From the NCBI GenBank assembly GCA_951406725.2, contig OX597837.1, positions 43,276,001 through 43,340,000 of the forward strand: DNA of 64,000 nt, in the 5' to 3' direction. Both the position numbers and the translations under genes were made by a program. The notes beneath the pieces are model-generated. The model had not been told where the DNA came from. It was given only the letters and a program-made list of their open reading frames with translations, and did no database searches. Origin of the DNA: Octopus vulgaris. Its lineage: Eukaryota. Below are positions 18,190-53,645 of the stretch, in pieces. Positions within the stretch are counted from its first letter, which is position 1. Every line of letters begins with the position of its first letter.

Positions 18190-18560
18190 ATAATAATCAT
18201 CATCATCATCATCCTCATCATCAATAATAATCATCATCATCACCACCACCATCATCATCATCATCGCCATCATTATCCACCTCCTCCTCATCCCTATCCT
18301 CATCACCATCATCTTCATTACTAGCAATTGCGCAGCATCAGCACTATAGACACCATCGTCAAATCACTATTGTTGTCATCATTGCCATAACCGGCATTAT
18401 CTTCCTCCTACTCCTTCATCTCTTTTTCCTTCTCCTCTATCTCATCACCATCATCATCATCACCATCCCCATCGTCATCTCGTTATCCCCGTCATTATCA
18501 TCTTCATCGCCATCGTCACCCCCTTCGTTGTCACCATTATCGTAATCCTCCCCGTCACCG
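17695..18560. repeat. (CAT)n/(CAC)n compound microsatellite
   Basis: Read directly from the sequence. Confidence 0.95.
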
Positions 18561-18565
18561 CCACC

Positions 18566-18793
18566 AGCAGCAGCCGTCCAAGAATTTGAACCTGGAGATC
18601 TCCATTTCCAGCGATTTCAAGGGCCACCTCCCAGTGGTGTCAGGCATCAACGAAGAGCCCTCGACTACAACAAGACGACCAAAGTTTTTTTTTTCCCAAG
18701 GTCTGGGGTCTCCCGCCCCCTAAGCCCCAGACCATCACCTAATCACCCTTACCCGTCTTGTTGCTTAACAACAACAGCAACAGCAGCAGCAGC

Positions 18794-18840
<47 letters not shown>

Positions 18841-19080
18841 CAGTAGTAGTAGTAGCAGCGGCAGCAGCCGTTCAAGAATTTGGACCTGGAGATCTCCATT
18901 TCCAGCGACTTCGAGGGTCACCTCCCAGTGATGTCGGGCGTCAACGAAGAGCCCTCGACTACATCAAGACGACCAAAGTTTCTTTTTTCCAAAGGTCTGG
19001 GGTCTCCCGCCCCCTAAGCCCTAGTCCGTCACCTAATCACCCTTACCCGTCTTGTTGCTTAACAACAACAACAGCAGCAG
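18566..19080. repeat. Direct duplication of a ~215-bp GC-richer unit, separated by (CAG)/(TAG)n
   Basis: 18566-18780 and 18860-19075 align closely (gccgt.caagaattt...cgtcttgttgcttaacaac). Confidence 0.9.
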
Positions 19081-19960
19081 CAGCACTTTCCCCACCGACA
19101 CCACCACCACCATTACCACCACCACGTCCATCTTTGGCTACTGAATTATATGGAAGACAGAAAAGCTAGGTCTTCCTTTTTCAGGGACCTCTGTCATTCA
19201 TTTCTAGCCGCGGTTCGATGCACGAAACTGGATTTGGTTAAAGAGAGACGATGAGCGATGGCTAGAAGGATATTGAGTTTAACTTCATAACCAGCTGATC
19301 TAGCAAGCGGGGCCTCATATCAGTGAGGGGGGCCGGTGCGCATTGATGCCGTCGAGAGGTAGGCCCCGAAACGGCGCGCATTCTCTCCTGATGACCCCAT
19401 ACACTTGCTGGCTTCCGGTATACGGAGCTTTTGACTGGTAGCACTTGCATGTGCAAGTTGTTTGCAAGACATCTTCCAGGAAAACGTTCCATATCGAGAA
19501 CTAACAACGTAGAGACGGAAAAAATGCCGCCAGGCACTTTGTTCGGCGTTCTAACCATTCTGCCAACTGCTGCTGATACTGATGATGATGATGGTGGTGA
19601 TGGTGGTGACGATATTAATCTCCACGCTTCTCCCTTTAGGTTGAGCTACAATTGAAAGAGTATTACGCTTTTGTTTATTTCCCATGTGTAAAAGGTATTG
19701 ACTTGTAGATTTTCTAACACTCTACTCCCTTACTGTAGTTGTGACAGGAAATATTCATAGAAATATTTGCGGTGACTTGATAAAATGAATAATCTTTATC
19801 CAAATATGAAACATTTTCTTTTTATTTTTGCCAATCTCTATAAGAAGATACTGCAAACTTTAGGAACTTATCTCCATATGAGTACGTTTAATAAAAAATA
19901 TATCCATAAATAAATACATATTTTCGGTGTTTTGTGAGTATAGGTTTACCTATATCGCAG

Positions 19961-30323: not shown

Positions 30324-30460
30324 GCGGCCCGAAACTAAAGAGGGGCCTCAATGTGCGTTCGAGGTGTCGATGCTCACTGTGTCCTGCAATTCGCATCAGT
30401 TCACACGGATAGCCGCGCTCTTCATCGACGGAGGAGCTGAGTGATCCCCCGTCCAGGGTT
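30324..30460 (-). pseudogene. RNA5-8S: Orphan 5.8S rRNA copy, 3'-truncated and diverged
   Basis: Minus strand: AACCCTGGACGGGGGATCACTCAGCTC...GTCGATGAAGAGCGC...GAATTGCAGGACAC...CATCGACACCTCGAACGCACATTG, then a GGCCC/GGGCC hairpin. The hallmark 5.8S motifs are in order, and no 18S or 28S is nearby. Confidence 0.9.
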
Positions 30461-44270: not shown

Positions 44271-44342
44271 GACCCTGTGGCGCAACGGTAGCGCGTCTGA
44301 CTCCAGATCAGAACGCTGTGTGTTCGAATCACGTCGGGCTAA
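44271..44342 (+). tRNA. tRNA-Trp-CCA: tRNA-Trp(CCA), probable pseudogene or variant
   Basis: 72-nt cloverleaf with D stem GCGC/GCGC, anticodon stem TCTGA/TCAGA (CCA at 44303-44305), T loop TTCGAAT and a T5 run at 44347-44351. The acceptor stem has G1.A72 and C3.C70 mismatches. Confidence 0.9.
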
Positions 44343-53366: not shown

Positions 53367-53432
<66 letters not shown>

Positions 53433-53436
<4 letters not shown>

Positions 53437-53645
53437 TTGCATAGCAAGGGTCAATTGCAGAGTGAGAGGTGTTTATATGCCATTCAAGCACACGCACAAA
53501 AACCGTAAGATTCACTTCAACATTTAAATTTGATTTGTCAAAATATTTTCGTCGCCTTAAAACAACGACCTGTTCACTGACAAAATTCAGTGCTGCATTT
53601 TGTCAGTGTACAGGTCCGGGTTTCCTTGCGAAGAAAATATTCCAT
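53433..53645 (-). mobile_element. Penelope-like mini-element, family G, with 5' fold-back
   Basis: The 3' end is at (TA)n, a hammerhead lies 100 nt upstream, and an inverted degenerate copy of it sits at 53597-53642. Confidence 0.6.
53534..53584 (-). ncRNA. Minimal type-I hammerhead ribozyme, G3-C8 variant
   Basis: Minus strand: TTTGTCA-GTGAACA-G-GTCGtt-gttttaa-ggCGAC-GAAA-ATAT-TT-TGACAAA. Perfect 7-bp stem I, 4-6-bp stem II, AATATT palindromic stem III, UUU site. Confidence 0.7.

Follow-up and report, generated by a model that had tools for sequence, protein, structure and literature searches.

The comparison of sequences indicates that a hammerhead-like motif in the genome of Octopus vulgaris is a lineage-wide G3-C8 variant of the Penelope minimal hammerhead, and that it provides comparative support for the pairing of core positions 3 and 8. 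The 3-8 pair of the hammerhead is known from crystal structures and mutagenesis. The motif lies in a window of 64,000 nucleotides (the whole stretch of DNA that was analysed) from a genome of 2.8 Gb, G000, in which the copy counts given below were also made. In our judgement the locus is probably what remains, after decay, of one end of a Penelope-like element present in many copies, in the form of a head-to-head fragment. The pseudo-LTR of the element carries a minimal type I hammerhead motif with G3-C8 throughout the lineage, and this motif would cleave itself slowly, either as a dimer or together with the element's protein; the copy at this locus is probably inert.

The features of the locus are collected in Table 1. 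On the minus strand at 53534-53584 every hammerhead core position is canonical except 3 and 8, which are G3 and C8, and the 7-bp stem I, GTCG/CGAC stem II, GAAA and AATATT palindrome reported along with this core in the first-pass annotation were all present; that annotation was silent on the host element, the need of stem III for a dimer, the extra G at 53570 and the probable inertness of the copy. For the minus-strand arm as well as for the family, U4, G5, A6, A9, G10.1-C11.1, G12, A13, A14, A15.1-U16.1 and H17 all match the canonical hammerhead, whereas the C3 and G8 identities of the CUGANGA core are absent and the Watson-Crick complementarity between positions 3 and 8 is present in the form of G-C; the motif is a variant and not a canonical member of the class. 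The features expected of a minimal hammerhead (min-HHR), namely an extra nucleotide between 9 and 10.1, a palindromic 15.2-16.2 and a location in the pseudo-LTR, were all found. Folding of a 56-nt piece containing the motif gave -15.3 kcal/mol and a z score of -3.1, with 2 of 200 shuffles equally good, and stems I and II form in the predicted fold, stem III being the palindrome alone.

Table 1. Features of the insertion and of its hammerhead-like motif, in positions of the window
Feature	Position	Strand	Basis
(TA)n run adjoining the 3' end of the element; the family usually inserts into (TA)n	53367..53432	.	
Long arm, 5'-truncated pseudo-LTR end of Penelope-like element	53431..53598	-	blastn against L129
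Position of the element's ORF start codon; remnant only beyond	53481..53483	-	comparison with fuller copy L129
Short inverted arm, same insertion	53599..53641	+	
Minimal type I hammerhead-like motif, G3-C8 core, palindromic stem III	53534..53584	-	sequence reading and folding
Stem I, 5' strand	53584-53578	-	
Core G3, U4, G5, A6, A7, C8, A9	53577 (G3), 53572 (C8), 53571 (A9)	-	
Extra G between A9 and stem II	53570	-	
Stem II, GUCG/CGAC (4 Watson-Crick pairs) and one U-G pair	53569-53551	-	
G12-A15.1 (GAAA)	53550-53547	-	
AAUAUU palindrome (stem III)	53547-53542	-	
U17	53541	-	
Predicted cleavage site, after U17, between 53541 and 53540	53540..53541	-	numbering; analogy with known hammerheads
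Stem I, 3' strand, 7/7 Watson-Crick pairs with the 5' strand	53540-53534	-	

With gathering and E-value thresholds, Rfam gave no hammerhead match at the locus or in five control loci, and it was equally blind to a C3-G8 motif in a related metagenome locus (L159) and to U3-A8 motifs in two other loci (L157 and L231). Because relatives with C3-G8 and U3-A8 are missed as well, the miss here is not caused by the 3-8 swap, so that the earlier claim that standard CUGANGA searches would overlook the motif holds for a CUGANGA descriptor and does not account for the Rfam result.

The insertion consists of two arms in head-to-head orientation. The long arm is identical to a young copy (L129) at 126 of 148 letters by blastn and has lost approximately 30 nt ahead of a tail remnant at 53448-53431. 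The short plus-strand arm does have G3 and C8 (core 53606-53612), as had been noted before; its core is also altered by A6U, its stem II is broken, the arm runs out at 53641 ahead of its own stem I 3' strand and gives no stable fold (z score of +1.0), and, being part of the same head-to-head insertion, it fails as a second witness to the swapped core. A read-through transcript of both arms was predicted to fold into one long hairpin of -49.7 kcal/mol, far below the value for the motif alone, and since the core is paired away in this hairpin the locus copy is probably inert. A non-LTR retrozyme was considered and rejected, since it needs a head-to-tail tandem of short hammerhead units and the locus is a single head-to-head pair.

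To place the locus among its copies, G000 was searched with an 18-mer that spans the core and leaves positions 3 and 8 as N. At least 7,649 exact matches were found in comparison to 2 for the reversed control, which rules out a chance origin of the motif. Among the first 100 matches listed of these 7,649 arms, G3-C8 was counted by eye in 96. Only 22 arms differ at both positions, none of them with C3-G8, and the eight that are A3-U8 were read as decay, being double transitions. Two core-independent samples, drawn with queries that excluded the core, agree with this count: in the first, 36 arms were anchored and 29 parsed, of which 27 had both G3 and C8, and in the second, 31 were anchored and 29 parsed, of which 28 had both. 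The tabulation of genomic copies at positions 3 and 8, which had been proposed in advance as a test, thus gave a family consensus with both G3/C8 and stem I, the lack of either having been named as the contrary outcome. Thousands of identical copies show what the master elements carried, and not selection. Contigs from runs under four organism codes also contain the motif, with no variant of at least 1% listed at G3 or C8, a result in which a missing entry proves nothing, and such contigs cannot show cleavage.

Judging from its sequence, the host is a Penelope-like element, and by eye a Nematis-like one. The long copies encode a reverse transcriptase (RT) with YVDD, a zinc-finger-like linker and a GIY-YIG/CCHH-like end, all motifs read by eye, and the open frame in the family at the locus (family A) is a single ORF of 1,025 aa with the endonuclease C-terminal. 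The copy L129 has the order pseudo-LTR, ORF, pseudo-LTR, with the motif on both sides of the ORF and the predicted cut 56 nt upstream of the start codon, while in tandem copies the motif lies about 1 kb downstream of the ORF stop; with the cut ahead of the start codon, the codons of the main ORF place no constraint on positions 3 and 8. L129 also displays the features of EN+ Penelope-like elements, including a pseudo-LTR partial tandem, an inverted 5'-truncated arm and an optional tail. The 3' ends of the arms fall at two places, counted from the cut site at about +89 and +149 nt (approximately 60 nt apart), and usually lie in (TA)n. Two 3' ends, inverted arms and a tail agree with what the portions of PMC8557442 and PMC11167929 considered here describe for Penelope-like elements, namely a tail, inverted arms and priming at two internal sites. 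Family A also resembles the Nematis/Neptune EN+ elements in those portions of PMC8557442 in its C-terminal GIY-YIG, inverted 5'-truncated arms, tail and (TA)n target, and in its CX2-5CxxC linker, which with a short spacer before the GIY motif looks by eye like the Nematis rows of the supplement; it differs in a tail of about 60 nt in comparison to 30-40 there, and the likeness to the clade was judged by eye. Four RT motifs of family A are absent from the portions of the supplement of Craig et al. (PMC8557442) that were covered. Pfam returned no RT or GIY-YIG match for any of four pieces (0/4), a PDB search returned one weak RT match, a search of a large protein collection returned a wide protein family with no context, and no relative was found in viral contigs. 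Membership of the Naiad clade, which is marked by an N-terminal endonuclease and by having no canonical hammerhead, was rejected because of the domain order, the endonuclease here being C-terminal.

Two further observations concern the ends of the element. At L061:1500-1530, 21 nt upstream of G3, a branch-point-like sequence is followed by a polypyrimidine-CAG (acceptor-like), which ends where many arms start and suggests either the acceptor of a 5' UTR intron or a transcript start. In addition, L046 and L202 hold short head-to-tail arrays of the family A end-piece that look like the start of retrozyme-like tandem repeats.

The comparison was then extended to related families, and the results showed that the identity of the 3-8 pair changes among them while its complementarity does not. 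Family B, with 55% aa identity to A, is the family with most intact ORFs (many frames of 1,310 aa, and an open frame of 1,312 aa); it has C3-G8 upstream of the homologous ATG, and in this family (L134:1826-1885 and other G000 loci) C9 is found instead of A9, stem I is weak and stem III is not palindromic. In family C, with 48% aa identity to A, the corresponding place ahead of the ATG holds U3-A8; among the 13 arms listed, 8 have both U3 and A8. Of 27 metagenome-contig loci, two contain a convincing motif behind the ORF and none of the remaining 25 does; L157 has U3-A8 and also C9, L159 has C3-G8, both lie just behind the ORF, and a scan independent of pairing returned the same sites. A Watson-Crick 3-8 pair is therefore present in all five families examined (A, B, C, L157 and L159), and it is kept as well in the older subfamilies D1-D3 described below, in agreement with the earlier reading of the two transversions as a pair-preserving change, though selection may act on the fold rather than on catalysis, to which that reading ascribed it. 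G12, A13, A14, A15.1, U16.1 and a non-G17 are likewise kept in the five families, while the flanking sequences differ widely between them. C9 and the weak stem I in family B, along with C9 in L157, indicate that the clade tolerates departures in the core. In a tree of 17 rows, A is sister to B+C (96/93) and L157+L159 fall outside; taken with the pair types, this implies that both positions changed together three times or more and that every such change produced a Watson-Crick pair. By parsimony in this five-family sample, G3-C8 would be the derived state.

Several loci deserve mention in their own right. L231, L233, L238 and L269-L288 belong to family C, an older third sister family whose U3-A8 hammerhead has a 3-bp stem I. 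In family B, position 17 is C in some of the more diverged copies and U in others. Other repeats close to the elements examined also contain hammerhead-like motifs, with U3-A8 or C3-G8 cores, at L145:122 (+), L142:6273 (-) and L198:6615 (+).

Within the lineage of family A, three older subfamilies (D1-D3), whose downstream identity to A is 78, 73 and 62%, were used to look at the persistence of the pair. A core-independent anchor gave 78 matches, from which 70 loci with 71 arms were examined; 40 of the 71 arms were placed without the use of positions 3, 7 and 8, in comparison to 0.035 in the shuffle control, and the other 31 were left out because of decay or truncation. G3 was found in 33, C8 in 31 and the G-C pair in 25 of the 40 placed arms, with departures that are mostly transitions. 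The subfamilies differ from A in having C at position 7 (A in family A), in the length and sequence of loop II and in a 4-nt instead of a 6-nt stem III palindrome. One stem I pair of D1 has changed in a compensated way, and the stem II sequence is invariant across A and D1-D3. When the four majority sequences are compared, none of six upstream core sites varies, in comparison to 24 of 53 invariant non-coding columns (or 24 of 43 that are gap-free), with Fisher P of 0.013-0.042. The test is partly circular, since the template used for placement included U4, G5, A6 and A9 and the anchor included GAAA-UUU; sites 3 and 8, which were free, would both be invariant by chance with a probability of 0.2-0.3. 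We take the invariance of the core sites in D1-D3 as support for a selected pair, not as proof.

In the literature covered, the natural 3-8 covariation that was found goes from C-G to U-A only, and G3-C8 is known there as a laboratory mutant. In a full double-mutant scan (Roberts et al. 2023, PMC9901934), no double mutant of the U-turn region was strongly rescued other than C20G/G25C, which corresponds to positions 3 and 8, and in the PAc Penelope hammerhead single mutants at 3 or 8 were dead and C3G/G8C was partly rescued (Frangieh et al. 2024, PMC11167929); these experiments, in the portions considered, bear out the statement of the first-pass annotation that a compensatory swap restores activity, partially in the second case. 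The same pair inversion is here natural, fixed in a lineage and set in a U17 context. A natural U3-A8 variant was described in the Schistosoma mansoni min-HHR (Cervera and de la Pena 2014, PMC4209133), and U3-A8 is the only natural 3-8 covariation in section 8 of Perreault et al. 2011 (PMC3088659), so that their variants and family A share natural covariation and differ in its kind (U3-A8 and G3-C8, respectively). Family A resembles the min-HHRs of Penelope-like elements (PLEs) in the portions of PMC4209133 considered in the type I order, the extra nucleotide between 9 and 10.1, G10.1-C11.1, the palindromic stem III, the pseudo-LTR site, the inverted neighbours and U17, which is common among them; the consensus there is CUGANGAH, whereas here 3-8 is a purine-pyrimidine G3-C8 and the extra nucleotide is G, and G3 was found in 0 of 56 representative motifs of Figure S3 of that paper. 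Among the portions covered of the literature, which included PMC6155905, PMC11014351, PMC6765202, PMC13725137, PMC10085705, PMC7229834 and bioRxiv 10.64898/2026.07.22.740005, no natural G3-C8 hammerhead was found, and an earlier report is possible.

As for how the element might use the motif, two copies in a tandem transcript would pair through the AAUAUU palindrome to form stem III, the G3-C8 pair would replace C3-G8, and C8 would supply the ribose role of position 8. Position 8 contributes its ribose to the hammerhead mechanism. Cleavage after U17 would then trim the element RNA just upstream of the ORF, and the short genomic arms may arise when uncleaved RNA is reverse transcribed from either of two internal start sites. 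Many PLE hammerhead variants were reportedly described by Lunse in 2017, which may bear on the novelty of the present one.

Several observations count against strong activity of the family A motif. The palindromic stem III closes only in a dimer, and unconstrained dimer folding returned other structures, the hammerhead dimer not being the minimum-energy state. In the predicted monomer fold, stem I is extended by a G3-U17 wobble, which is analogous to the inhibitory C3-G17 pair discussed in the portions of PMC3884650 considered; the same source mentions, as data not shown, that a G3-C8 mutant was more active with G17 than with C17. U17 here avoids a G3-C17 pair but permits the wobble. The proposal that U17 co-evolved with G3 to avoid the G3-C17 trap was rejected, since U17 is also found in B, C, L157 and many published min-HHRs, and it is at most permissive. 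The read-through hairpin weighs in the same direction, as do the genomic 5' ends, which do not pile up at the cut site: among the first 100 of 275 rows, inspected by eye, 3 of 32 distinct (TA)n-flanked loci end there in comparison to 5 at a site 7 nt downstream, and a second set of breakpoints is likewise scattered. Arms starting 20-23 nt upstream of G3 make up 10 of 34 and 25 of 47, and since many arms start upstream of G3 the templates of those arms were uncut. Such a breakpoint pattern would be expected of a ribozyme that is slow or depends on a dimer, and just as much of a fold that does not cleave. Even where the core is canonical, the minimal hammerheads of PLEs have weak activity (PMC4209133, in the portions considered).

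The alternative that bears most directly on this point is that the element retains the hammerhead fold and its 3-8 pair for their structure, for example as a binding site for the RT-endonuclease or as a translation or priming signal, with cleavage negligible or not selected. Work on PAc lends it weight, because cleavage-dead mutants still inserted in vitro and uncleaved RNA was the main template, cleavage itself needing the protein and not being required for insertion in vitro (PMC11167929, in the portions considered), and so do the uncut motif in most genomic arms, the C9 of family B and a stem II whose invariance across subfamilies fits sequence-specific binding. Against it, the 3-8 pair marks the catalytically active conformation (PMC3884650, in the portions considered), G12 through U16.1 and the non-G17 are retained in all five families, and flanks that differ so widely are unlike those of a sequence-specific site, so that we regard a purely structural role as unlikely. 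A dead hammerhead, with a swap that occurred a single time in one master copy and then spread by amplification without selection, would be in line with a copy number that mirrors the master only, with variation among copies that resembles neutral decay in being mostly transitions, and with the chance invariance of positions 3 and 8 given above. It requires, however, two chance transversions that happen to give a complementary pair, and it leaves the Watson-Crick pair of all five families and the persistence of the motif in subfamilies with a downstream identity of 62-78%, where a stem I pair is compensated and stem III is still palindromic after an indel, to coincidence; we consider it quite improbable. 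That inverted repeats of a non-autonomous DNA transposon (MITE) or a chance palindrome mimic a hammerhead is hardly credible: many copies are indeed near-perfect palindromes, but the arms are unequal in length, with variable 5' breakpoints and two fixed 3' ends, each arm folds alone, long copies run into RT and GIY-YIG coding sequence, and the pseudo-LTR-ORF-pseudo-LTR order of L129 contradicts it.

Returning to the reading of a slowly cleaving hammerhead, we are inclined to think, on balance, that the lineage passed through a two-step valley, either single mutant being dead, reached a working G3-C8 and kept it through at least four subfamilies, so that its sisters with C3-G8 and U3-A8 would form a natural experiment and purine-first cores a layer that CUGANGA searches leave uncounted. 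If this is true, a natural G-C lineage with thousands of copies confirms the 3-8 pair from evolution, and hammerhead counts based on descriptors are underestimates. With a different pair type in each of three sister families, it would also become testable whether Penelope elements need hammerhead cutting or folding only.

Other features were observed in the same window. A 5.8S rRNA match of 77 bits at 30325-30460 (-) is apparently a dispersed, diverged copy, and a tRNA match of 46.6 bits at 44271-44342 (+), with mismatched acceptor-stem pairs, is possibly a pseudogene or the head of a SINE. The stretch at 18546-19169 (+) is GC-richer, contains an internal repeat of about 70 codons and lies between simple repeats.
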